Made by a program: the position numbers and the translations under genes. The notes beneath the pieces are model-generated. The model did not search any database, was not told the origin of the DNA, and saw only the letters and a program-made list of their open reading frames with translations. A stretch of 64,000 nucleotides of DNA from the NCBI GenBank assembly GCA_025057615.1, contig JANXBF010000003.1, forward strand, positions 6,828-70,827. Direction: 5' to 3'. Every line of letters starts with the position of its first letter. Position 1 is the stretch's first letter. Below, piece after piece: positions 1,316 through 52,278 of the stretch. This DNA comes from Candidatus Calescibacterium sp. (GTDB lineage Bacteria; DRYD01).

Positions 1316-2308
1316 TCAATATTCTTCCGACTCTTCTTCTGTTAATATTTTAGTTATTTTCACACCAACCTTGTTACCCACTAAACCTATAGTTCCCAAA
1401 AATTTGGTTTTTCCCTCTATTTTTATTTTTGCCTCTTCATCAATCCTGTTATCTAAGGCTATTATATCACCAACTTCAATATTAAGTAGATCTCCAAACA
1501 AAACTTCAGTTTTCCCTAACTCAACAACTAACTCAACCTTACTAAAACTTATGTTCTTCTCACTCAATATCTTTGATTGATCCTTCAATATTTTATTTAA
1601 AATATCGGGATTAACAGAAGTAGATAAAACACTTTTTTGCTGTGGCACCAACTCTCTCAAATAGTTAAAAGGAATAATGAAATTAGCTACAGATTCCACC
1701 ATCTCAACACGGATGCTAAAGTTTATCTTTGCAACAGTCGCAGTATATGGTATAACAAGAGCTAAAGCAGACTCAGACGAAACTTTCTCTAATTTAATGA
1801 ACCCCAACTTCTTATTCTCCTGACTGGACAGCGTATTTAACATCTTATTGTAATTTTTTATTAATTCATCAACAAAAAAAGTAGAAAACAAATGCAACTC
1901 AAGTTTAGTGAATTCCCTGATTTTAGAAGACAACTCTCCTTTACCCCCAAGCAACAGATTTAAAAAAATGAAAACTATATAAGGGTCCAAAATAACAATG
2001 CACTTTGGATGAACCGTCAAACTGTCCTCAATATCAAACCTCACTATCAAACTCGGGTTGGGTATATAATCAATGAACTCAGAAAACTGTAAAACTTCAA
2101 CATTAGACAACTCAATAACCATTTTTTTCTGAATTACTTCAGATAAACAAATAGATAACTGTTCAAAATAGTCCTTAAAAAAACCATGTATGAACTTACT
2201 TTCAAAAGCAGTGAACTGAGGCTTGGTTATGGCAAAAGCAGGATGCTCCTGAGAACTAGAACTATAAGAACCTTTACGTATATACTTTTCAAAAGGATTT
2301 GGCTTCAT
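1316..2308 (-). CDS. fliM: Flagellar motor switch protein FliM (N-terminus atypical)
   Basis: A 330-aa protein with the FliM middle-domain signature (LLGGKGELSSKIREFTKLELHLFSTFF) and a C-terminal FliN-like domain (VELGKTEVLFGDLLNIEVGDIIALD). It lies immediately upstream of fliN. Confidence 0.8.
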   Translation of the reverse strand: MKPNPFEKYIRKGSYSSSSQEHPAFAITKPQFTAFESKFIHGFFKDYFEQLSICLSEVIQKKMVIELSNVEVLQFSEFIDYIPNPSLIVRFDIEDSLTVHPKCIVILDPYIVFIFLNLLLGGKGELSSKIREFTKLELHLFSTFFVDELIKNYNKMLNTLSSQENKKLGFIKLEKVSSESALALVIPYTATVAKINFSIRVEMVESVANFIIPFNYLRELVPQQKSVLSTSVNPDILNKILKDQSKILSEKNISFSKVELVVELGKTEVLFGDLLNIEVGDIIALDNRIDEEAKIKIEGKTKFLGTIGLVGNKVGVKITKILTEEESEEY

Positions 2309-2380: not shown

Positions 2381-2396
2381 TTTACATTTTTTTAAA
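2381..2396 (+). promoter_or_regulatory. Degenerate copy of the direct-repeat box (TTTACA-TTTT-TTTAAA) upstream of the 2481 gene
   Basis: It has the same orientation relative to the downstream gene as the strong copies at 6450, 42875 and 51963. The second hexamer is degenerate. Confidence 0.3.
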
Positions 2397-2432
2397 AATT
2401 TTTTCCAAAATAAAAAAATTTTTTTCCAAAAT
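2394..2432. repeat. Imperfect tandem duplication: AAAAATTTTTTCCAAAAT / AAAAAAATTTTTTTCCAAAAT
   Basis: Two adjacent units (2394-2411 and 2412-2432) differ only in A/T-tract length. They lie in the divergent fliM / 2481 promoter region. Confidence 0.7.
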
Positions 2433-2480: not shown

Positions 2481-3179
2481 ATGAATACAAACATAATAAA
2501 TACAAACATTAAAAACACATTTAAAATAGATTTCTCAAAAATAGACAACTCCCTTGAACAAGCACTTCTACCTTTCAACGATAGCTTTATAATGTCAAAA
2601 ATAAACGATAAAATAAAAGAACAAGGCTACGCAAAAATAGAAGGCATATTTGCTAACCTACCAATAAAACTCTTCTTCAAACCAATGAGTTCTAACACCA
2701 TAATAGTCCAAGGAAATATAGGAAACAATCAAATAAATACCAAAGTTATGATAATGGAATCAAATAGCGACCCAAATCTCAAAAAACAACTGTTTCTTAA
2801 AAACATAACAGAAAGTGGTATGGTTAACTCCGTTTACAACGAAACATTTGACCAATGGGGCTTCCAAAATCAATCATCAATTATCTTACCAAGTGCAAAA
2901 ATGACAAAACTGGACCTAAGAGAAATAATGAAAAGCAACTTATATTCTCAATTAACTGTGACCTATAACCCAGAAACAGGAGAAAGCCTATACAAAGTTA
3001 AACAAAATTGCACCTGTACAAAAGAATTAGTAAGAGCAACATACGTATCCAAATCATCAGAAAATCCAGAATTGCAAGTAGATACCAAATTATCAATGGA
3101 TGTAACAACCGACTTACATACAGAAGGTAAAATAAAACAAGATGAAAACGAATGGATAATAAACTATAAAATAACATAA
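2481..3179 (+). CDS. Hypothetical protein, 232 aa, no recognisable family, no signal peptide
   Basis: A long ORF preceded by a strong RBS (TAAGGAGGATAAATCAATG). The sequence (MNTNIINTNIKNTFKIDFSK...) matches no family I recognise. Confidence 0.7.
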   Translation: MNTNIINTNIKNTFKIDFSKIDNSLEQALLPFNDSFIMSKINDKIKEQGYAKIEGIFANLPIKLFFKPMSSNTIIVQGNIGNNQINTKVMIMESNSDPNLKKQLFLKNITESGMVNSVYNETFDQWGFQNQSSIILPSAKMTKLDLREIMKSNLYSQLTVTYNPETGESLYKVKQNCTCTKELVRATYVSKSSENPELQVDTKLSMDVTTDLHTEGKIKQDENEWIINYKIT

Positions 3180-3855: not shown

Positions 3856-5547
3856 TTAATCTTTCTTAAGTTTATATTTAGAATAATCTTTCATATAAGA
3901 CAACTTCTCAATGGAAGGCTTTTCTATATTAGAATATACTAAATTTAGATTCTTATCAAAAACGAGCAATACTCCACCATAAACAGGGAAATCTTTTCCA
4001 TCAATATCTAAACCAATGGGATAAGTATATACACCCTCTATGCTTATCCCACCATCAAAATTGGGAACAACACTGATCCTCATCTTTTCAATAATCGAAA
4101 ACTCTGAAGAATAATTTTTTAATAAATCAATAACAGCTTTTTCAATATCCTTACTGTTCTCATAATTGGCAAGCTTTTCTTTCAAAATTGAAACATCAAC
4201 ATTCTTTGATTTTTCAATTTCAAGCTTTATATCATCCAAAGAAGAATTAAGTAACTTACTACTGTTAGCAGCCTTAATAAGATAATTAGAAATATTAGAA
4301 TTGTTGTATAGAATATCGGCAACTATGAGAGATTTATAAAATTCTGGCATTGTCGTAGTAGCCAAAGGAGAAATTTTAGTTCCCATTACAAAAACCTTAA
4401 AGAATTCTTTAGCAGCTTTTTTGATATCACCAACATCTTTAACATATTCAGAAAAAGCTTTATAAAAGGTGGTACTTAAAGATAAAGAATATTTATGTTC
4501 CTCTTTTTCAGAAACGGTAAGCTGATTATATGGTTTATATTCAACTAAAGAAGTCATTTCACGTAAAGGAGTGTTAACACTGATTTTTTGAAAATCTGTG
4601 AATGGATCTTCATTAAGAATTTGTTGTTCTATCTTAAACTGAGTATAAAATGCTGTCCCAAAACTCTCTGCAATAGAAGAAATAGCATTAGGTTTATCAA
4701 TTTCATCAATACTAACGTTTATGTTTTCGTCCATCGCTGCAAAGAGAAAGGAGTTTATATCACTAAAAGCTTCATGAACCGCAGAAGTCTCCAGATGAAA
4801 AACACTGTCTATATAAAATGGTCTCAGTCTATCCAAAATAGCGTGCCCAACCTCATGAATAACAACATCACTATCCTTTGAAGCATTGAAAACTTTATTA
4901 TCTTTATATGAAACAAAAGTTCCCAAAGAAAGAAAATTACTCACAGGATTATAAGAAGCATTCTCCATAAAACCCTTAAATGTATTCTTTCCAAACAAGT
5001 CTATGTTTATACTACCAAAGAAGTTTTCCTGAGCATTCTTAGACCACTCTACAACATTTTTTTCAACATTATAAGCAGTAGATATCGCATAGTAAAGTAT
5101 AGTTCCTGGCTTAATATTAGATAAATTTGAACTAAAATTAGACACTTCCTCCTTGACCTTATCATATTGTGATAAAATGTTTACAGTATGATCAGTATTT
5201 ATAATAAAAGCTTTTGTGGGAAAAAATTTTAATAACCTCTCTATAAATTGATTTTGTTTATTATTTATAGAATCAATTCTGTAATCTCCATTACCATTTT
5301 TTTGATCAACAAAAATTAATTCTTTTATTTTTTGAGTTACTGCCTCTTTATTCTGGTCAAGCAAAAACTCTCTAATTTCTAACTTAGAAGGTAAAACACC
5401 TTGATAATACTTATCATCAGATTGAGGATGATAATTTACAACAGGATTTTTATACTCCGCTATTTTACTTGATGTTTGATAAATAATACTGGGAACATAA
5501 TTTTTAATCAACTTCTGCAAACTTTGTAAGTCAAACATTTCTTTCAC
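3856..5547 (-). CDS. Thermolysin-like (gluzincin) zinc metallopeptidase, no signal peptide
   Basis: The motif HEVGHAILD is followed 28 residues after the first His by AVHEAFSD. This is the HExxH ... xEAxSD arrangement characteristic of M4-type gluzincins. The N-terminus (MKEMFDLQSLQKLIKNY) is hydrophilic. Confidence 0.7.
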   Translation of the reverse strand: MKEMFDLQSLQKLIKNYVPSIIYQTSSKIAEYKNPVVNYHPQSDDKYYQGVLPSKLEIREFLLDQNKEAVTQKIKELIFVDQKNGNGDYRIDSINNKQNQFIERLLKFFPTKAFIINTDHTVNILSQYDKVKEEVSNFSSNLSNIKPGTILYYAISTAYNVEKNVVEWSKNAQENFFGSINIDLFGKNTFKGFMENASYNPVSNFLSLGTFVSYKDNKVFNASKDSDVVIHEVGHAILDRLRPFYIDSVFHLETSAVHEAFSDINSFLFAAMDENINVSIDEIDKPNAISSIAESFGTAFYTQFKIEQQILNEDPFTDFQKISVNTPLREMTSLVEYKPYNQLTVSEKEEHKYSLSLSTTFYKAFSEYVKDVGDIKKAAKEFFKVFVMGTKISPLATTTMPEFYKSLIVADILYNNSNISNYLIKAANSSKLLNSSLDDIKLEIEKSKNVDVSILKEKLANYENSKDIEKAVIDLLKNYSSEFSIIEKMRISVVPNFDGGISIEGVYTYPIGLDIDGKDFPVYGGVLLVFDKNLNLVYSNIEKPSIEKLSYMKDYSKYKLKKD

Positions 5548-6386
5548 TCCTTTCTATTTTTAAATTCCGCAAATGGCTTTAAAAACCCCCCAAGAACAAT
5601 GCTTATAGGACGATGATCAGAAGCCAAAACAACCTCCGGCTTCTCTTTTTCATCAACAACATCATAAGTCCCCTGTATAACCAAATTCTTAACACTATCA
5701 GAAATTCTTATATAGTCAACTATACTCGGACCATGGCTAGCATAAACATCACTCATAGACATAGGCTGATAGTAGTGAGTCGGAACATCAATATCTTTTG
5801 ATAATTTATCAACATTTCTAACATCAATAAACCCATTTTTTTCAAAGATCTGGCTAACCTCAGAAAAAGGTAAATCATTATAATCACCCAATATAACTGT
5901 AGGGATTTTACTTTTATTTACCAACTCTATAGTTCTCCTGGCTTCCTTTTTTCTCTGTTCCTGAGACTCTGGATTCATCTTGGCTTTGAAATGTACAGAA
6001 ACAAATTTCATATCAAATCCGGGCATAATTTCAACAATAGCTTCAACAGGAGGCCTATAAAACACATCCTCTTTCTCATTTATTGTATAACTCTTTATCG
6101 GAAATTTTTTATCAACAAGCAATGCACAGGCTATACCTCTGCCATCACTTTTACCAACTATAACATTGTACCTATCTTTTAAACCAGCCAAAACTAACAC
6201 TTCCCTAACTATATTAGTATTTTCCACTTCCTGCAAAGCAACAATATCACTGTCAAGACTCTTCAGAACCTCTGCCAAAGCCTTCTTAGAAGCTTCTGAC
6301 TTAGGAGGTCCATCATCCTTAAGAGGATCATCAAACCTGTCAAACAAATTCTCAACATTATAAGTGGTAACCTTTATATTTATCAT
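5544..6386 (-). CDS. Endonuclease/exonuclease/phosphatase (EEP) family protein, no signal peptide
   Basis: The N-terminus TTYNVENLFDRFD, together with ALQEV, GDYND and SDHRPI, matches the EEP catalytic motifs. Its stop overlaps the metallopeptidase start by 4 nt (5544-5547). Confidence 0.8.
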   Translation of the reverse strand: MINIKVTTYNVENLFDRFDDPLKDDGPPKSEASKKALAEVLKSLDSDIVALQEVENTNIVREVLVLAGLKDRYNVIVGKSDGRGIACALLVDKKFPIKSYTINEKEDVFYRPPVEAIVEIMPGFDMKFVSVHFKAKMNPESQEQRKKEARRTIELVNKSKIPTVILGDYNDLPFSEVSQIFEKNGFIDVRNVDKLSKDIDVPTHYYQPMSMSDVYASHGPSIVDYIRISDSVKNLVIQGTYDVVDEKEKPEVVLASDHRPISIVLGGFLKPFAEFKNRKE

Positions 6387-6449: not shown

Positions 6450-6476
6450 TGTAAAAAAAATGTTAAAAAGTGTTTA
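6450..6476 (-). promoter_or_regulatory. Direct-repeat box, three hexamers: TAAACA-N4-TTAACA-TTTTT-TTTACA (gene orientation)
   Basis: The + strand reads TGTAAAAAAAATGTTAAAAAGTGTTTA. The box lies 64 nt upstream of the EEP gene start (6386). Its 14-mer core is identical to those at 42875 and 51963. Confidence 0.5.
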
Positions 6477-6484
6477 AGTTTTTT

Positions 6485-7759
6485 CTACAAAATTCTTCGA
6501 AAATTTTTCAAAACAAAAACAATTCTATCAACTATACCAGTTCCTCCCAAAAAACTACCAAATATAAAAATCCCCATTTTCTCCAACTCCCTCAAATAAT
6601 ATTTATCAGAAAGATAAAAATCCAAATACCTGGAATCATAGTCAAGAATAGAATTATCCCAAAAAACACTGTAATAATCAATAATACTGTTTTCAAAGTC
6701 ATAATTTAAAAAACCGAAAAATTTACTTAACTCATTGAAAACTGCAGAATAATCACTGGTTTTTGAAAAAACTCGTAGTACCTCTATTTCACTTTCCTCA
6801 TACCATTTCTTAGAAAAAAAAGTTATAGATTTAACGAAATCATTACTCCTGAATATTACTCCATTTGATTTTAAAGAAACAATCTTGTTTAAAATAAAAA
6901 TATGAATCATGGAAGAGTGATAATTCAAAGCACTCAAATCTTGACACAATAACTCAATGTTCTTATCATAGAAAGACATCTCTTTTAAAAGAGGAAGCAT
7001 TCTACTAGCCTCCCCAGTAAATACAACTTTCTTACACTTATAACTATCATTTATGAAAAAACAATTTCCATCAAAAATTATCTTATGAATTTTTTCTTTA
7101 ACTATCCTTTTATTTTGTGACAACTTGTTTACAATTGAACTCAATCCCAATGGACTAGTAAACATAGTCACAGGTCTATAAAACATCTCATTTTCAAATT
7201 TTCTTACAAAAGGGTAAACAAATTTTAATATCAATCTTTTGGAATCAATACCAAAAACTGATTCAAAAATGGGGAATATAACCCTCTCAGAAAAAATTCT
7301 ACCAAATCTCTTGAGAGAGTAATCATAAAGTGTGCAATTTTGATAGAAATCTTTTTCAAAAATAAACTTGTTAAATAAAAATTTTATTAAAAAACCGACC
7401 TTCTCTGAAAATGTCATAAAATCACCATATATGAAATCACTAATATTAGAAGGAATAAAATATATCTCCTTACCATCTGCAATATAGATCTTATTTCTTT
7501 TCATAATCTTTTTTTGTTCGAAAATATCAGGAAAATACCCCTCAATAAAATTCAACTTATCCCTATCAAAAACAATAGATTCCGGCCCAAGTTCAATAAA
7601 ATATTCCCTGTCCTTATATTTATAACACATAGTCCGAATTTTACCACCTATTTCATCTTCCTCAAAAATAAGTGTTTCACGATTTGGTATAAGGCTGGCT
7701 AAAACAAGACCGGTTATACCAGCACCTATTATGACGATATCTACTTCTTTATAACCCAA
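6485..7759 (-). CDS. FAD-dependent oxidoreductase (protoporphyrinogen/amine-oxidase-like fold)
   Basis: An N-terminal Rossmann dinucleotide motif (VDIVIIGAGITGLVLA ... EEDEIGGK) and a ~424-aa length. The specific substrate is not callable. Confidence 0.6.
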   Translation of the reverse strand: MGYKEVDIVIIGAGITGLVLASLIPNRETLIFEEDEIGGKIRTMCYKYKDREYFIELGPESIVFDRDKLNFIEGYFPDIFEQKKIMKRNKIYIADGKEIYFIPSNISDFIYGDFMTFSEKVGFLIKFLFNKFIFEKDFYQNCTLYDYSLKRFGRIFSERVIFPIFESVFGIDSKRLILKFVYPFVRKFENEMFYRPVTMFTSPLGLSSIVNKLSQNKRIVKEKIHKIIFDGNCFFINDSYKCKKVVFTGEASRMLPLLKEMSFYDKNIELLCQDLSALNYHSSMIHIFILNKIVSLKSNGVIFRSNDFVKSITFFSKKWYEESEIEVLRVFSKTSDYSAVFNELSKFFGFLNYDFENSIIDYYSVFWDNSILDYDSRYLDFYLSDKYYLRELEKMGIFIFGSFLGGTGIVDRIVFVLKNFRRIL

Positions 7760-41399: not shown

Positions 41400-42815
41400 T
41401 TAGGAAATAATAGTTTCTGGAGGTTCTGGATTGGGATTTGGATTAGGTTCTGGTGATGGTGAAGGAGGTGATGGTGGAAGCATACTCAAAGCTTCCTTTA
41501 CAGCTTCGTATACATTAACCAAACCTGATCCTTGATCAAATTGGTCATATGGTTTATTATCAGTTGGGTCGGTTTTCGTGAGTTTTATTGCATGCTTCAT
41601 AAGTAATTCTTTAACTTGCTGTTGCGTAAGGTTTGGATTTGCATTCAATATTAGCAGCATAGCACCTGCAACACCTGGTGTAGCCATTGAAGTTCCAGAT
41701 ATTGCTATATATTTTCCGTCAGCAGTTACAGGTATCCTACCTTGCTTTGCAAGTTTGTCCAATTCACTGCCTGGTGTATTAGCTGCCCAAATCTGGACGC
41801 CGGGCATTGATACATCGGGTTTAAGCTTAGAAGTTTCATCTGGAGCATTCTTAACTGGTCCTCTTGAAGAAAACCTGGCTATATCATCATCAGCCAAATC
41901 CTCAGTTTTTTTGTCTTGATATGCAGCAACAGTAACTGCATTTGGAGCTATAGCTGGTGTACCAACCGTATTCTGTGTAGGTCCACTATTACCAGCAGCT
42001 ATAGCAAAATAAACCCCGTCTTGTATAGCTTTCTCAACGGCCAAGGCCAGAGGATCTTGATTCCATGGCTTAAAAGCATAGCCACCTAAGCTCATATTAG
42101 CAACGACTTTTTTACCTTCTTGTTTTGCCTTTTCTACCACTTTGTTTATTCCTCGGATAATATCAGATGTGTAACCTGACCCTCCGTCGCTGAGGACTTT
42201 AATACCCCATATTTCAGCTGCTGGTGCTAAACCAGTAAACCTTCCATCGCCAGCAGCTATACCAGCAACGTGTGTTCCATGGCCGTGGCCATCATGAGGT
42301 TTGGTATGTCCTGAAGAAGTGGCATCAAAATGATAAGTTAACCTGGAACCCCAGTCATCGTGATTAGCAACACCAGTGTCTATAACAGCAAGTACCAATC
42401 CTTGACCCTTATAACCCATTTCATGTACTTTATCTGCACCAGTAATTTGTAATGTTACGTTTTTTTCTGGTAAACTCTGAACTTCTTGTGAGGTTTTGAC
42501 TCCAACTTTTTGCTTCATTTTTTGAAGTTCTCTTGTTTGTTTTAACTCTTCGGGCTCAACCAATCCCACTTTCTCATCCTTGAATACATTCACTCCTTCT
42601 GGCAAAGACTTGTATATGTTTGGTAAAGAATTCTTCTTTACTTCTGCAAGAACAAAGCCATTTCCCAAGTCCTCGACAACCCTTCCTGCCTTTAAGGTCT
42701 TCAAAATCTTTTCTATTTTGGCTTTATCCCCTGTAAAGATCACTCTTTCTAGTTCTTCTCTTTGTGTCTTACGATGCACATTCTCGTGTCCCCTCAACGG
42801 GTTTATGTTATTCAT
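41400..42815 (-). CDS. Subtilisin-family (S8) serine protease with N-terminal propeptide-like region, Pro-rich C-terminal tail, no signal peptide
   Basis: The catalytic triad blocks VIDTGV, HGHGTHVAGIAAG and SGTSMATPGVAG are present. The N-terminus MNNINPLRGHENVHRKTQ is hydrophilic. The C-terminus is PPSPPSPSPEPNPNPNPEPPETIIS. Confidence 0.9.
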   Translation of the reverse strand: MNNINPLRGHENVHRKTQREELERVIFTGDKAKIEKILKTLKAGRVVEDLGNGFVLAEVKKNSLPNIYKSLPEGVNVFKDEKVGLVEPEELKQTRELQKMKQKVGVKTSQEVQSLPEKNVTLQITGADKVHEMGYKGQGLVLAVIDTGVANHDDWGSRLTYHFDATSSGHTKPHDGHGHGTHVAGIAAGDGRFTGLAPAAEIWGIKVLSDGGSGYTSDIIRGINKVVEKAKQEGKKVVANMSLGGYAFKPWNQDPLALAVEKAIQDGVYFAIAAGNSGPTQNTVGTPAIAPNAVTVAAYQDKKTEDLADDDIARFSSRGPVKNAPDETSKLKPDVSMPGVQIWAANTPGSELDKLAKQGRIPVTADGKYIAISGTSMATPGVAGAMLLILNANPNLTQQQVKELLMKHAIKLTKTDPTDNKPYDQFDQGSGLVNVYEAVKEALSMLPPSPPSPSPEPNPNPNPEPPETIIS

Positions 42816-42874: not shown

Positions 42875-42891
42875 TGTAAAAAAAATGTTAA
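42875..42891 (-). promoter_or_regulatory. Direct-repeat box TTAACA-TTTTT-TTTACA (gene orientation)
   Basis: The + strand reads TGTAAAAAAAATGTTAA, 60 nt upstream of the subtilisin start (42815). The 14-mer core is identical to those at 6450 and 51963. Confidence 0.5.
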
Positions 42892-47246: not shown

Positions 47247-47651
47247 TCATTCAACATATTTGTAGATTATCCTGTATTTTTGTATTTGTCCCGAGTATTG
47301 AACATAGATTTTAGTTTGGTATTTATATGGATTAGTAGATACAACAATTGAATTGGATGAATCAAGATAAGCTTTACCTACTTCCTTAGCATTAGCAGGA
47401 ACATTCTCATAAGGGACACTCCGGACAACTAAATCCCCAGCAGTTTGATTGGTATATAATTTTACAATAAAAGAATCTCCCAGATACATACCCTGCCAAA
47501 AAATATAAAACCTATCAAAATTAGAAAATCTACTCAAAGTGTTAGCAAAAGCCAAAAAAGTAAAGATAATAAAAAGACTAATAAATATCACTGTTGCCAT
47601 GTTAACCATACCTCTGGACATACCCATTTTATTTTTATATTCCATATACAA
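47247..47651 (-). CDS. Hypothetical N-terminally anchored protein (~130 aa)
   Basis: The track start is a TTG. An ATG at 47643-47645 with an upstream AAGGGA is the more likely start. It has one TM helix (ATVIFISLFIIFTFLAFA) followed by a beta-rich domain. Confidence 0.5.
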   Translation of the reverse strand: MYMEYKNKMGMSRGMVNMATVIFISLFIIFTFLAFANTLSRFSNFDRFYIFWQGMYLGDSFIVKLYTNQTAGDLVVRSVPYENVPANAKEVGKAYLDSSNSIVVSTNPYKYQTKIYVQYSGQIQKYRIIYKYVE

Positions 47652-49815: not shown

Positions 49816-50010
49816 TTACTTTTTATCATTGGGTACAAATTTATCTTCTATAGGAAAAGGAGAAAATGGCATTTTATGGGGGGCATTGAGAATAGTATTT
49901 ATATTTTTGATCTGTTTTTGGGATTGTGTTTTTTCATTTTTTTCTTTTTCTGGTTTTTGTTCTATTGGAGCTGGAGAAAACGGTCTATCTTTTTTATTTT
50001 TGATGTCCAT
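49816..50010 (-). CDS. Small hydrophilic protein (64 aa) with duplicated PFSP(A/F)PIE(Q/D)K motif
   Basis: The RBS is strong (GGAAGGAGGTATGAGAAATG). The motif RPFSPAPIEQK lies at residues 9-19 and MPFSPFPIEDK at residues 47-57. Confidence 0.5.
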   Translation of the reverse strand: MDIKNKKDRPFSPAPIEQKPEKEKNEKTQSQKQIKNINTILNAPHKMPFSPFPIEDKFVPNDKK

Positions 50011-50024
50011 TTCTCATACCTCCT

Positions 50025-50054
50025 TCCTATAATACTCTTTCCTATAATACTCTT
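50025..50054. repeat. Perfect tandem duplication of a 15-mer (TCCTATAATACTCTT x2) immediately upstream of the 64-aa ORF RBS
   Basis: 50025-50039 and 50040-50054 are identical. In gene orientation the repeat reads AAGAGTATTATAGGA x2 and runs directly into AGGAGG. Confidence 0.8.
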
Positions 50055-50081
50055 TTAATAACACTTTATTTATAATGTTCA

Positions 50082-51890
50082 CTATGTAGTTGAAGCTTGC
50101 AATTGTTCTTTATCATTTTTGAATAAATTGTTAAATTTTTCAATAATTCTATTTTTTATGTTCCCGAGTTTCTCAGCAACTCTCTCTTTAAAATTTTCAG
50201 TTCCAACCATAGAGTATATCTGGAATATCAACTTGGCTATTTCTATACCAATAGATACAACGCCAAACAATCTTCCCAATCCAAGTGCAGCCAAAGCCAA
50301 TGATACACCTCCAACAATGTTAAGTAAACCTTGTATTCCTATTCCCAGATTATTTCTTTCGTCAGCCATTTGCATCATTTTAGCCCCCTGTATGATATCC
50401 CTTGTAGATCCAATGAGCCCAAAAATAGAGGTAAGCCCTCCATATCCTCCGCCGAATATTGTGCTCCAACCCATCCAGAATTTTCCTAGACTACCAAGCC
50501 CATTAACAAAGTCTCCGCCGGCAGTCCCTATAGCATAACTATTTTTCAAAGTATTCTCATCATTTTTATTCTCATTTTTTGAGATCTTATTTTTAGCAGT
50601 GAATAATTTTTCAAGCCCCATGAATAGCAATGAAGCAACAGAAAATCCTACCACACCCAAAGGTCCAAAGAGCGGACCCAAAAAACTTAATAACATAGAA
50701 AATCCGCTGAGGAACCTAAATAACCCAACTTTGAAGTTTTCTGGTTTATTATCCACTGCAGAATTCTTGAGAATACTTGCTCCTTCAAGCGATTTTATAG
50801 TTCCCCCTACTATAGATGCTATACTACCCAAACCACCAGGCTGCTTAGTAAGTATATTATTAATCAATGAAGTAAAAGATAAAACATCGGCAGAACCTTT
50901 GATAAAATTTTCAGTTGATTTACCTGTGGAGTCCATTATTTTTTCAACACCTGAATTTTTATAAGGTGTATTTTTTTGGAATTCATCGATTTCTTTTTCA
51001 TTTTTATTTTTAGAAAACCAACTCTTTACGGTATTAAAGACCTTGGATACCACTCCTAAGGAAGCTCCAACAGCTCCACCTATGACACCACCAATCAATC
51101 CATAAATTTCCTTGGCAAATCCTTTAACAGCGTTGAAAACCTTCACTCCAATAGGTAATGAAGCCAATAAACCCAATCCAATCGAAGGGACAAATCCAAC
51201 TGTCCCAAGAGATAATGACATGATTAACAGAGCCAAAGGAGCCATCATCACAGCACTAACAGCAAGAGCTAATGGAACATTCGCCCAGTTTCCTGCCTTC
51301 TTGTTTGATTCCTTGCTCCATTCAACACCCAAATTGAACCCATTCCTAATATACTCCATAAAGCTTTCACTATTTTTGAGTTTTTCAAGGGAAATTTTGA
51401 GTTCTTCCACTCTGGTTGGATCTTCCTTTTGGAGCATCTGGTAGGTGGTTTGTCCACCCGCGACTGCACCAGCAATTGCAGAACTGTACTGAGTTCCAAC
51501 TAATCCAAGTGCCAATATTGATTGAAGAATTTGGAGCACTGGCTCAGATATATTTACAGCAACTCCCCCAGAAAACAACAACTGAATCAGGAAAGAAATT
51601 GGAACAAGAGCAAAATTGAAAGTGAAATAAGCCAAAGCTCCAGCTAAAGCAGCACCAAGAACTGATAAACCAACAGCTTTAGCATCCAATTTTTTTACAT
51701 CAAATTCACTTATTTTTTCTTTGATCTTTTCAAAGCTCTCTTTAAGATCAGAATGCATTCTAGTGAAAAAGTCCCCAACTTCTTTGCTTTCATCCAAAAA
51801 ATTTACGCCAATAAAATTTTTTAAATAACCCTCACTAAAATTAACTTCATCAAAAGATTTCTGGTGAGCTTTATTTAAGATTATATTCAT
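50082..51890 (-). CDS. Large glycine-zipper-rich membrane protein (602 aa), unknown family
   Basis: RBS is AGAGGTG. A hydrophilic, coiled-coil-like N-terminus (~70 aa) is followed by at least five long Gly/Ala/Leu-rich hydrophobic blocks. Examples are AVGLSVLGAALAGALAYF, IYGLIGGVIGGAVGASLGVV, LSFLGPLFGPLGVVGFSVASLLF and LLNIVGGVSLALAALGLGRLFGVV. The blocks are separated by K/N/E-rich loops. Confidence 0.75.
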   Translation of the reverse strand: MNIILNKAHQKSFDEVNFSEGYLKNFIGVNFLDESKEVGDFFTRMHSDLKESFEKIKEKISEFDVKKLDAKAVGLSVLGAALAGALAYFTFNFALVPISFLIQLLFSGGVAVNISEPVLQILQSILALGLVGTQYSSAIAGAVAGGQTTYQMLQKEDPTRVEELKISLEKLKNSESFMEYIRNGFNLGVEWSKESNKKAGNWANVPLALAVSAVMMAPLALLIMSLSLGTVGFVPSIGLGLLASLPIGVKVFNAVKGFAKEIYGLIGGVIGGAVGASLGVVSKVFNTVKSWFSKNKNEKEIDEFQKNTPYKNSGVEKIMDSTGKSTENFIKGSADVLSFTSLINNILTKQPGGLGSIASIVGGTIKSLEGASILKNSAVDNKPENFKVGLFRFLSGFSMLLSFLGPLFGPLGVVGFSVASLLFMGLEKLFTAKNKISKNENKNDENTLKNSYAIGTAGGDFVNGLGSLGKFWMGWSTIFGGGYGGLTSIFGLIGSTRDIIQGAKMMQMADERNNLGIGIQGLLNIVGGVSLALAALGLGRLFGVVSIGIEIAKLIFQIYSMVGTENFKERVAEKLGNIKNRIIEKFNNLFKNDKEQLQASTT

Positions 51891-51962: not shown

Positions 51963-51979
51963 TGTAAAAAAAATGTAAA
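51963..51979 (-). promoter_or_regulatory. Direct-repeat box TTTACA-TTTTT-TTTACA (gene orientation)
   Basis: The + strand reads TGTAAAAAAAATGTAAA, 73 nt upstream of the 602-aa gene start (51890). The 14-mer core is identical to those at 6450 and 42875. Confidence 0.5.
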
Positions 51980-52023: not shown

Positions 52024-52278
52024 ATGGAATGTAAAATAGTTACTCCCTATTTCTCAAAAACAGTGAATGTAAAAGAGATATCCATAGACAGCACTAATGG
52101 TGTTCTTTTAATATATCCACAACATACTGACATGATATCCTCTATAAAGAAAGATTCTCTTTTGAATATAAAATCAACTGAAGGTAGCTTAAAATATAAG
52201 TGTAATCAAGGAGTTATAAAAATTCAGTCCAACAAAGCATTGATTTTAATAGATACAGATGAAAAGGATAATATGTGA
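52024..52278 (+). CDS. ATP synthase epsilon (AtpC) N-terminal beta-sandwich-like protein, truncated and orphan
   Basis: 84 aa. The sequence KIVTPYFSKTVNVKEISIDSTNGVLLIYPQHTDMISSIKKDSLLNIK...GVIKIQSNKALILIDTDE aligns by eye with the AtpC pattern IVTP...G.lGILPgH.p....L..G.l......gGf.ev..n.vtiLad.ae. There is no C-terminal helical hairpin. Confidence 0.5.
   Translation: MECKIVTPYFSKTVNVKEISIDSTNGVLLIYPQHTDMISSIKKDSLLNIKSTEGSLKYKCNQGVIKIQSNKALILIDTDEKDNM

Follow-up and report, generated by a model that had tools for sequence, protein, structure and literature searches.

A glycine-rich hydrophobic protein family and its motif-bearing partner in a conserved two-gene locus of Calescibacterota

Reticulon/Yop1, Mic10, CURT1 and the chlamydial Inc proteins, whose hydrophobic domains are bilobed, are built from long hydrophobic hairpins with Gly/Pro turns, amphipathic flanks and hydrophilic tails and have no catalytic residues, and the oligomerisation of Mic10 is driven by glycine-rich faces. 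Faces of the form GxxxGxxxG are over-represented in channel-forming helices. Glycine-zipper helices also occur in bacterial weapons: TelE, an LXG effector belonging to a secretion system of type VII (T7SS) with the immunity protein TipE, needs its C-terminal glycine zipper for membrane damage (PMC10434224), and the ionophores of contact-dependent inhibition (CDI) systems, modelled as membrane-spanning five-helix bundles, are polymorphic, with immunity proteins of ~30% identity within a group (PMC11630599). Here we analyse two genes in a stretch of 64,000 nucleotides (nt) of Candidatus Calescibacterium DNA (assembly GCA_025057615.1, contig JANXBF010000003.1, positions 6,828 to 70,827), hereafter the window: a large gene encoding a glycine-rich hydrophobic protein of 602 amino acids (aa) and, directly downstream, a partner gene encoding a charged protein of 64 aa. 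A preliminary description of these open reading frames (ORFs), made from the letters alone, had proposed a toxin or translocator with a chaperone, regulator or immunity protein, and possibly a release route for hydrolases without leader peptides. Our best reading of the comparative data is instead an operon of two genes that is vertically inherited and restricted to Calescibacterota.

What the window pair has in common with TelE/TipE and CdiA-CT/CdiI is a set of helical glycine-zipper hydrophobic regions followed by a small gene directly downstream. It differs from both in lacking an LXG or CdiA delivery domain and T7SS or CDI neighbours, in a hydrophobic part that is four to five times larger, and in its place in a conserved core-genome locus, where its divergence is ordinary rather than polymorphic. 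By Pfam and hydropathy the partner is a disordered charged peptide and not a DUF5085-type, folded or membrane protein, and neither system gave a sequence or fold match to the window protein. The likeness to hairpin membrane-shapers consists of hairpins with Gly/Pro turns combined with amphipathic helices and no catalytic residues, whereas the window protein carries several hairpins in one 600-aa chain, has a dedicated motif-bearing partner and shows no sequence relationship to them; no Pfam match to reticulon, Mic10 or CURT1 was obtained. With the families Gly-zipper_Omp (PF13488) and Gly-zipper_YMGG (PF13441) there is a common G-x3-G-x3-G run, and a few family members match them over ~15 residues of a glycine zipper at G264–G279; these matches reach about 15 bits against cut-offs of 25–29 and span 15–17 residues, and the window protein itself is unmatched. 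Phage tape measure proteins resemble it in being long, all-alpha and glycine-rich with hydrophobic segments, but the window gene lies in conserved chromosomal synteny and has no structural match in BFVD. The closest of these analogies, glycine-zipper pore-formers and hairpin membrane organisers, are functional only; true kinship is confined to the Eremiobacterota proteins described below.

The family to which the large protein belongs is unnamed. A word-indexed search of 5.8 billion clusters returned 25 homologues of 46–91% identity, all of them unannotated and derived from hot-spring-type metagenomes or metagenome-assembled genomes (MAGs). The nearest relative, P0001, is 91% identical and belongs to a MAG that bears the name Candidatus Calescibacterium (Calescibacterota), which identifies the source of the window, and the large protein of a second locus (L001, MAG SKW172) is 90% identical. 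Eight GTDB species-representative genomes carry the large gene, at one locus each. A family profile was built from the alignment of 26 members, and its search against 1.84 billion representatives by hidden Markov model (HMM) gave 21 proteins at E ≤ 0.001, two of which stand for the family itself. A group of proteins of 185–430 aa (P0026, P0028–P0042) matched residues ~305–565 only, and two matches were marginal: P0043 aligned weakly to the N-terminal half, and P0044, a 913-aa repeat protein that reads as tape-measure-like from its sequence, had E = 9e-4. A 434-aa paralogue without the second of the two modules described below (P0027, probability of 99.6% in hhalign, with the N-half region aligning) is encoded between the large gene and the motif-bearing partner in one locus (L007, 7766-9070, DT_Bin_34). 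The labels "DUF697 family" and "MtrG" attached to relatives by some sources were not reproduced by Pfam. One member (P0018, loci L004–L006) belongs to a MAG labelled at NCBI as "Candidatus Anstonellales archaeon" (DPANN); because genes of bacterial type (GGDEF, FeoB, an N_methyl domain of a type IV pilin) occur on its contigs together with the upstream box of Calescibacterota discussed below, this bin is probably contaminated or misassigned.

A follow-up search with the profile of the 185–430 aa group gave relatives labelled Eremiobacterota, Vulcanimicrobiota or "Armatimonadetes", in which a ~120-aa module with DEFxxxSPxK at its head occurs once or twice. These proteins (P0026, P0028–P0042, P0045–P0049) are true distant homologues of residues ~305–565 by alignment, with which they have in common the DEFxxxSPxK lead-in, a GGTxD...GA...NRN helix and a hydrophobic hairpin with a G-x-G-R turn. 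They differ from the window protein in length (185–430 aa), in lacking the hydrophobic N-terminal half, in their Ala/Gly-rich composition and in coming from high-GC genomes, and they are equally uncharacterised. This module of the C-terminal half is common to two distant phyla, Calescibacterota and Eremiobacterota.

Several observations bear on how the gene has been inherited. In a Calescibacterium-like clade the locus sits in conserved core-gene synteny, with atpC-like/murA/mreB on one side and acyltransferase/dprA/gatB on the other. The large protein is 62/51/62% identical to its orthologues in three species, for which the corresponding values are 62/53/59% for DprA, 57/52/54% for the acyltransferase, 78/71/73% for MurA and about 90% for MreB. 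As its divergence resembles that of DprA and the acyltransferase and its neighbourhood is stable, the large gene behaves as an ordinary, vertically inherited gene. No homologue was found by tblastn in a phage collection of 50,697 records or in a plasmid collection, a PADLOC scan for defence systems gave no significant match (E = 0.015), and no secretion-system genes lay near the pair in the loci examined. The locally higher G+C that had been pointed out is real (0.364 for the large gene against 0.307 for the window, i.e., ~31%), and the excess falls mainly on codon positions 1 and 2, with a value of 0.29 at third positions (GC3); it is a matter of Gly/Ala codon content and not of foreign origin. 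A foreign source was considered and rejected on this codon-position pattern, the conserved synteny and the absence of plasmid or phage matches.

Both ORFs, the exact 71-nt gap between them and the strong ribosome-binding site ahead of the smaller one are where the preliminary description had placed them, and the 64-aa product is indeed hydrophilic and carries the PFSP(A/F)PIE motif twice, at residues 9-17 and 47-55. It has a grand average of hydropathy of −1.4, 36% charged residues, nine prolines and no hydrophobic segment by hydropathy, and is predicted to be cytoplasmic; scans of Pfam, NCBIfam, PHROGs and PADLOC gave no match at all, and only four clusters among the 5.8 billion represent its family. 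In the Calescibacterium-like clade the gene after the large gene always encodes a charged protein of 60–75 aa, whose only conserved residues are those of the motif R-P-F-x-P-(F/A)-P-I-E, with R or M in first position; no substitution occurs at R9, P10, F11, P13, P15, I16 or E17 across six partners. A small partner usually has two copies of the motif around a variable spacer of 28–45 aa rich in K/E/N/Q, and in one species a single copy. In a second clade (about 48–50% identity) the synteny is a different one: thymidine kinase lies upstream and FeoB or UvrD downstream, and the gene after the large gene codes for a protein of 238–257 aa whose hydrophobic helices are rich in glycine and which has (E/K)PF(L/F)PFPP(E/K) at its end. 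The 257-aa form of this larger partner was also considered as a homologue of the large protein itself, an idea rejected on a weak hairpin-to-hairpin match only (probability of 23%). Altogether a gene with PFxPFP(I/P)E follows the large gene in seven of the eight species genomes, so that the conserved pairing on which the preliminary description had made its proposal depend is present in related genomes, and a regular-expression search of six-frame translations of the loci, including more than 100 unrelated ones, found the motif in partner genes only. The spacing between the two genes in relatives ranges from an 11-nt overlap up to 43 nt in the loci examined, and such short or overlapping spacing fits a single operon. 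Directly upstream of the partner's Shine-Dalgarno sequence, the window carries a perfect tandem duplication of 2 x 15 nt (AGAGTATTATAGGAA, 50024-50053, minus strand), which looks recent because the spacer in the 90%-identical L001 is only 43 nt.

The composition of the large protein supports its description as a glycine-zipper helical membrane protein, as far as hydropathy and residue statistics can tell. Seventy-seven windows of 19 aa have a Kyte-Doolittle mean above 1.6, against 12 +/- 9 (maximum 47) in composition-preserving shuffles. There are four strongly hydrophobic blocks (about 68–146, 201–285, 386–432 and 514–563) and two more that are glycine-rich and merely moderately hydrophobic, a count compatible with the "at least five" first reported; the three strings then quoted (GLIGGVIGGAVGASLG, GGLGSIASIVGG and FGGGYGGLTSIFGLIG) are all found in the product. 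The claim that these blocks are packed with zippers held in part: small-xxx-small-xxx-small zippers are enriched (24 against 12.4 +/- 3.6 in shuffles, P = 0.0035), whereas plain GxxxG is not significantly so (12 against 8.3, P = 0.10). Glycine makes up 29 of the 87 invariant columns of the family but only 11.8% of residues. The other invariant positions are occupied by L, K, F, P, A and S; D/E/T/Y/W are few there, H and C are absent, and the lack of a catalytic signature among them points to a structural or conductive rather than an enzymatic role. As had been noted, the first 70 or so residues are hydrophilic; residues 36–62 are predicted, at very low confidence, as one amphipathic helix, and a crude hydropathy test found no signal peptide or hydrophobic h-region at this N-terminus. 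The most hydrophobic segments lie in the N-terminal hydrophobic half (N-half; 72–111, 116–146 and 201–252), where 19-residue windows reach Kyte-Doolittle means of 2.0–2.4 and charge-free stretches exceed 40 residues. This half contains an invariant double glycine zipper, G264–G279, and no internal repeats were found in it. The linker that follows has the invariant residues D302, E303, F304, N307, P309, Y310 and K311, and the C-terminal tail is absent or different in many homologues.

The C-terminal half (C-half) consists of a ~120-aa four-helix module that has been duplicated in tandem, the two copies aligning in hhalign with E = 5e-5 over 83 columns at 27% identity. According to the structural model and the properties of the helices, each module begins with two long amphipathic helices and continues into a hydrophobic helix-turn-helix, whose turn is invariant (GPxFGP for module 1, GLGR for module 2). 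An AlphaFold model of the full-length protein was all-helical but weak, with a predicted local distance difference test (pLDDT) score of 58; the C-half alone, modelled from an alignment that included the Eremiobacterota relatives, gave an eight-helix model with pLDDT 83 and a predicted template modelling score (pTM) of 0.81. Foldseek comparison of the full-length model with the PDB returned generic polytopic transporters only (best E 0.2), and the C-half model had no match in the PDB (best E = 0.17, TM <= 0.27) or in BFVD (best E = 0.16, TM <= 0.30). A search of PDB sequences with the family profile gave IF-2 as its best and spurious match (E 0.098). The predicted fold is therefore taken, provisionally and as judged against PDB and BFVD, to have no known relative.

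Searches of family databases agree with the preliminary description in recognising no family for either protein, scans of Pfam, NCBIfam, PHROGs, PADLOC and PDB having yielded no significant assignment. The 602-aa protein had DUF1358 as its best Pfam match (18.2 bits, cut-off 23.4), nothing in NCBIfam below E = 0.05 and a marginal match to phrog_58 in PHROGs (E = 2.8e-4, 20 bits). Scanning all 26 members gave only sub-threshold, inconsistent and composition-driven matches (DUF1358, Pam17, Gly-zipper_*, RTX N-terminal domain, OAD_gamma, tape measure), on which ground assignment to a known family was rejected. The RTX domain PF02382 scored about 14 bits (cut-off 26.8) in 8 of 26 members, those checked being near-identical and from one clade, and no HemolysinCabind repeats or type I secretion system genes accompany it. 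With respect to polymorphic toxins, no LXG, CdiA/FHA or colicin R/T domain was detected, the N-terminal 70 residues carry no domain, and there were no hypervariable pairs in mobile or secretion contexts, the eight species genomes having one locus each. No translocator of a type III secretion system (T3SS) was matched by the Calescibacterota family in Pfam and no T3SS genes lie near the pair; a single Eremiobacterota relative matches SctB2, at E = 0.071 only, and the partner, being disordered and 64 aa long, is not a tetratricopeptide-repeat chaperone. The tape-measure comparison produced no phage gene context and only the marginal PHROG match, and no enzyme families associated with ribosomally synthesised and post-translationally modified peptides (RiPPs) occurred in any locus examined. 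The family, its module and the PFxPFPIE partner appear to be new, both by sequence and by structural comparison with PDB and BFVD.

Upstream of the large gene lies a 17-nt box composed of two TTWACA half-sites 11 bp apart. Three copies occur in the window, one of them ahead of the pair, as had been reported; they vary at one position, and so are not strictly the perfect repeats they were said to be. At up to two mismatches the window holds 5 matches where 0.41 are expected, and none of 100 shuffles reached 5. The box (TTWACATTTTTTTTACA) or a form with one or two mismatches lies upstream of the large gene in the orthologous loci examined from both clades, its 3' end 60–93 nt, mostly 73–75 nt, from the large-gene ATG. 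It is kept while its flanks diverge, also in the second clade, which has another synteny and an otherwise different intergenic region. One species (L002/L137) has the variant TTAACAAAATTTTTACA, and the exact or variant box is present in 8 of 8 species genomes. A scan of a genome collection gave, among the matches listed, chance ones in many AT-rich genomes; the seven hits used are those in seven of the eight genomes carrying the large gene. By these comparisons the box is a genuine cis element, phylogenetically conserved and specific to the lineage, and a candidate promoter or activator site. A sigma-70 promoter was considered and rejected, a scan for the -10 consensus finding no more sites than in shuffles, and the alignment of 26 box sites contains no conserved element downstream. 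Two directly repeated hexamers with a spacing of 11 bp resemble OmpR/PhoB-type response-regulator sites, which are able to replace a -35 element.

The other genes preceded by the box are of several kinds. The S8 subtilase (471 aa, 41400-42815, minus strand) has a ~135-aa N-terminal extension, with the Pfam match starting at residue 137, a Pro-rich tail (PPSPPSPSPEPNPNPNPEPPETIIS) and no signal-peptide-like hydrophobic region, an architecture that is odd for a protease expected to be secreted. In the third box-driven operon (3856-6386, minus strand), the 280-aa gene overlaps a gene for a 563-aa protein with an HEVGH (HExxH) motif and no Pfam match. A crude hydropathy test found no N-terminal hydrophobic signal region in the box-driven products of the window, and the phosphatase/nuclease-family gene behind the box makes a starvation-type regulon a reasonable guess. 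On contigs of related MAGs the box precedes a 73-aa peptide rich in Tyr/Gly/Asp/Pro (L032, 1623-1844), proteins of 327 and 143 aa with signal-peptide-like N-termini, an epimerase-like protein and others. The 143-aa protein (L040, minus strand, box 6801-6817) is made of PVYV(S/N) repeats; both it and the 73-aa peptide are possible constituents of the cell surface or matrix within the same regulon. Look-alike N-termini of the pair and the box-driven proteins (MNINP..., MEIRN..., MNNINP...) were set aside as uninterpretable in a genome of 30% G+C. Two degenerate copies of the box with two mismatches each (2318-2334 and 2381-2397, plus strand) stand in the intergenic region divergent from fliM, the second of them 83 nt upstream of a 232-aa ORF (2481-3179) with no Pfam match and an Asn/Ile-rich N-terminus (MNTNIINTNIKN...). 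The features that define the locus, namely the glycine-rich N-half, DEFxxNxPYK, the two modules, the motif gene and the TTWACA-N5-TTTACA box, are all present in the window and are located in Table 1.

Table 1 Positions of the large gene, its partner and the box copies in the window
Feature	Position	Strand	Basis or remark
Large gene, 602 aa, predicted all-alpha glycine-rich hydrophobic protein	50082-51890	-	Founding member; the family is unnamed
Residues 1-70, variable hydrophilic N-terminal tail	51681-51890	-	Mean column identity 0.25, pLDDT 25-37
Residues 71-292, N-terminal hydrophobic half	51015-51680	-	Hydropathy, alignment
Residues 293-312, conserved hydrophilic linker with invariant DEFxxNxPYK, heading module 1	50955-51014	-	Alignment
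Residues 313-436, predicted four-helix module 1	50583-50954	-	AlphaFold model, helix properties
Residues 445-565, predicted four-helix module 2, diverged duplicate of module 1	50196-50558	-	hhalign
Residues 566-602, variable hydrophilic C-terminal tail	50085-50195	-	Mean column identity 0.17
Intergenic spacer, 71 nt	50011-50081	-	Without terminator-like structure
GGAGG Shine-Dalgarno sequence	50019-50023	-	8 nt ahead of the partner ATG
Partner gene, 64 aa, disordered, K/E/P-rich	49816-50010	-	ORF list, motif, hydropathy
Motif copy 1, RPFSPAPIE, residues 9-17	49960-49986	-	Six-partner comparison
Motif copy 2, MPFSPFPIE, residues 47-55	49846-49872	-	Six-partner comparison
Box TTTACATTTTTTTTACA, two TTWACA half-sites 11 bp apart	51963-51979	-	3' end 73 nt before the large-gene ATG
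Second box copy TTAACATTTTTTTTACA	42875-42891	-	60 nt before the ATG of the 471-aa S8 subtilase
Third box copy TTAACATTTTTTTTACA	6450-6466	-	64 nt before the ATG of the 280-aa endonuclease/exonuclease/phosphatase-family gene

One explanation for these results, which we favour tentatively, is that the pair forms a resident, lineage-specific assembly of the cell membrane with a motif-docking partner, and is not a weapon. By way of its hydrophobic hairpins the large protein would enter the cytoplasmic membrane during translation, its lysine-rich tails and loops remaining in the cytoplasm, and the invariant small-residue (glycine) faces would pack helices tightly within and between subunits to give an oligomer. 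The cytoplasmic partner would dock its proline/phenylalanine peptides (PFxPFPIE) onto the conserved modules; with two motifs and two modules, it might clamp one subunit or cross-link neighbours and in this way control assembly, and the second-clade partner would be a membrane-anchored, single-motif version. Whether the product is a scaffold, i.e., a structural or organising oligomer of hairpins, or a solute channel is a distinction that the evidence does not separate; we regard the scaffold as somewhat more likely, a slight tilt owed to the amphipathic helices, the hairpins with Gly/Pro turns and the lack of conserved polar pore-lining positions.

This interpretation must be made cautiously, as a number of points weigh against it. 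Membrane insertion and topology are inferred from hydropathy only. The N-half is the worst-modelled part of the protein, the N-terminal 82 residues of the full-length model having pLDDT <50, and amphipathic helices around a hydrophobic hairpin are also what an amphitropic pore-former looks like. A few members have sub-threshold matches to the RTX N-terminal domain, SctB2, glycine-zipper families and a tape-measure PHROG. The partner of one locus (L009) has a single motif, so that a strict 2:2 arrangement cannot be general, one of the eight species genomes (L136) has no partner on its contig, and the three Eremiobacterota loci examined have no PFxPFPIE partner, their flanking genes being on the opposite strand.

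Other readings of the same data have to be set beside that of a resident membrane assembly. One may postulate a gated pore or export conduit, also resident, in which a zipper oligomer forms a wide channel in the inner membrane, the partner plugs or gates it from the cytoplasm, and co-regulated proteins without signal peptides are released, the proposed cargo being the S8 subtilase and, from the third box-driven operon, the nuclease/phosphatase-family and 563-aa HExxH proteins. The enrichment and invariance of the glycine zippers would suit such a channel, as would the occurrence of one box ahead of three operons in the window, the absence of an N-terminal hydrophobic h-region from box-driven products by crude hydropathy, and the oddity of a subtilase that has a long N-terminal extension but no signal peptide. 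We nevertheless consider it unlikely: no conserved polar pore-lining residues stood out, the operon contains no energising component (ATPase or other), and the second clade shows no linkage of the hydrolases with the pair. Elsewhere the box precedes signal-peptide-like, epimerase-like and small low-complexity products, not a set of leaderless hydrolases, and since it is common to unrelated genes, sharing it does not tie the pair specifically to hydrolases; the proposed release route for such enzymes loses its footing with this. A fuller version, in which a phylum-restricted, Sec-independent release pore of novel fold in the cytoplasmic membrane is gated or assembled by the partner's bivalent sticker motifs and a response-regulator-type box co-induces signal-peptide-less hydrolases in a nutrient-scavenging regulon, is very improbable. 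Quite unlikely, too, is an amphitropic or peripheral bundle, whose soluble modules would bury the hairpins and bind lipid or membrane surfaces reversibly, by a switch like that of apolipoproteins or colicins, while the partner stabilises the soluble state. The compact eight-helix model is confident without a membrane, several helices have a high hydrophobic moment, and the Eremiobacterota modules are Ala/Gly-rich and moderately hydrophobic, with Arg inside the "hairpins", all of which would agree with it; the charge-free and strongly hydrophobic windows of the N-half, however, would be hard to keep soluble.

The proposal with which the preliminary description began, that of an exported pore-former (toxin or translocator) whose small partner would be its chaperone, regulator or immunity protein, has some features in its favour. 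Its N-terminus is disordered, non-conserved and without a Sec signal; the modules, with amphipathic helices around a hydrophobic hairpin, resemble pore domains of the colicin or translocator type; the sub-threshold matches to RTX (about 14 bits against 26.8), SctB2 (E = 0.07) and a tape-measure PHROG (E = 2.8e-4) point the same way; and flagellar genes in the lineage (FliM in the window; PMC4791363) mean that a type III export gate exists. It is improbable all the same. No LXG, CdiA, RTX-repeat, colicin or T3SS-translocator domain reached threshold, the neighbourhood offers no secretion machinery, and there are no phage or plasmid homologues; the synteny is kept, the gene is single-copy and its divergence ordinary, resembling that of DprA, the opposite of what CDI ionophore pairs show (PMC11630599). 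Segments with a Kyte-Doolittle mean >2 would normally insert in the producer's own membrane, and the partner, a disordered charged peptide, is neither membrane-embedded nor a folded chaperone, which speaks against a chaperone or immunity role. Less credible still is the idea that the small ORF encodes a RiPP- or pheromone-like precursor, from which a peptide is secreted or modified, with the large protein as its membrane processing or export factor and the S8 protease as its maturase. A core-like motif repeated in a short, precursor-sized ORF and a shared box ahead of an S8 protease without a signal peptide invite the comparison, but no radical SAM enzyme, YcaO, lanthipeptide synthetase or prolyl oligopeptidase adjoins the pair at any of the loci, signatures of a transporter or peptidase are missing from the large protein, and the second-clade motif is single and ends a hydrophobic protein of 238–257 aa, which is not the architecture of a precursor.

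Downstream of the pair, on the same strand, the genes encode an acyltransferase-3/HGSNAT-type membrane protein, then DprA, a small ORF and lastly GatB; the divergent genes upstream encode an 84-aa protein resembling ATP synthase epsilon, MurA and MreB. The small ORF in the dprA-gatB interval (134 aa, 47247-47651, minus strand) has a single N-terminal hydrophobic segment and no family, and is kept in three related loci (L002, L007, L009) as ORFs of 121–127 aa with 45–65% identity. The 84-aa protein (52024-52278, plus strand) comprises the beta-sandwich N-domain of ATP synthase epsilon only, standing alone; its ORF overlaps the start of murA by 20 nt, and the arrangement recurs wherever it was looked up in the Calescibacterium-like clade (L002, L007, L009, L011). 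An Rfam scan of the locus gave no match. A FliM/FliN-type flagellar switch gene (1316-2308, minus strand) indicates that the organism has flagellar (type III export) genes, and Calescamantes genomes have been described as Gram-negative-type, heterotrophic and peptidase-rich, with flagellar genes (PMC4791363). Calescibacterium is an abundant aerobe of the streamer communities of Octopus Spring, from which metatranscriptomes exist (PMC11696919).

Beyond anatomy and conservation the picture drawn here is inference, and candidate phyla commonly contain orphan membrane proteins; what we present is a well-delimited candidate and not yet a discovery. Should the proposed picture be true, the locus would provide a new membrane-protein fold together with a new short docking peptide motif, both confined to deep-branching thermophiles (Calescibacterota) and with a core module in common with Eremiobacterota. 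The two-motif partner would then be a clean sticker-and-spacer system that is easily testable, and the conserved box offers a way into the transcriptional regulation of an uncultured phylum. The pair would also add a family to the small set of glycine-zipper and hairpin proteins that organise or perforate bacterial membranes.

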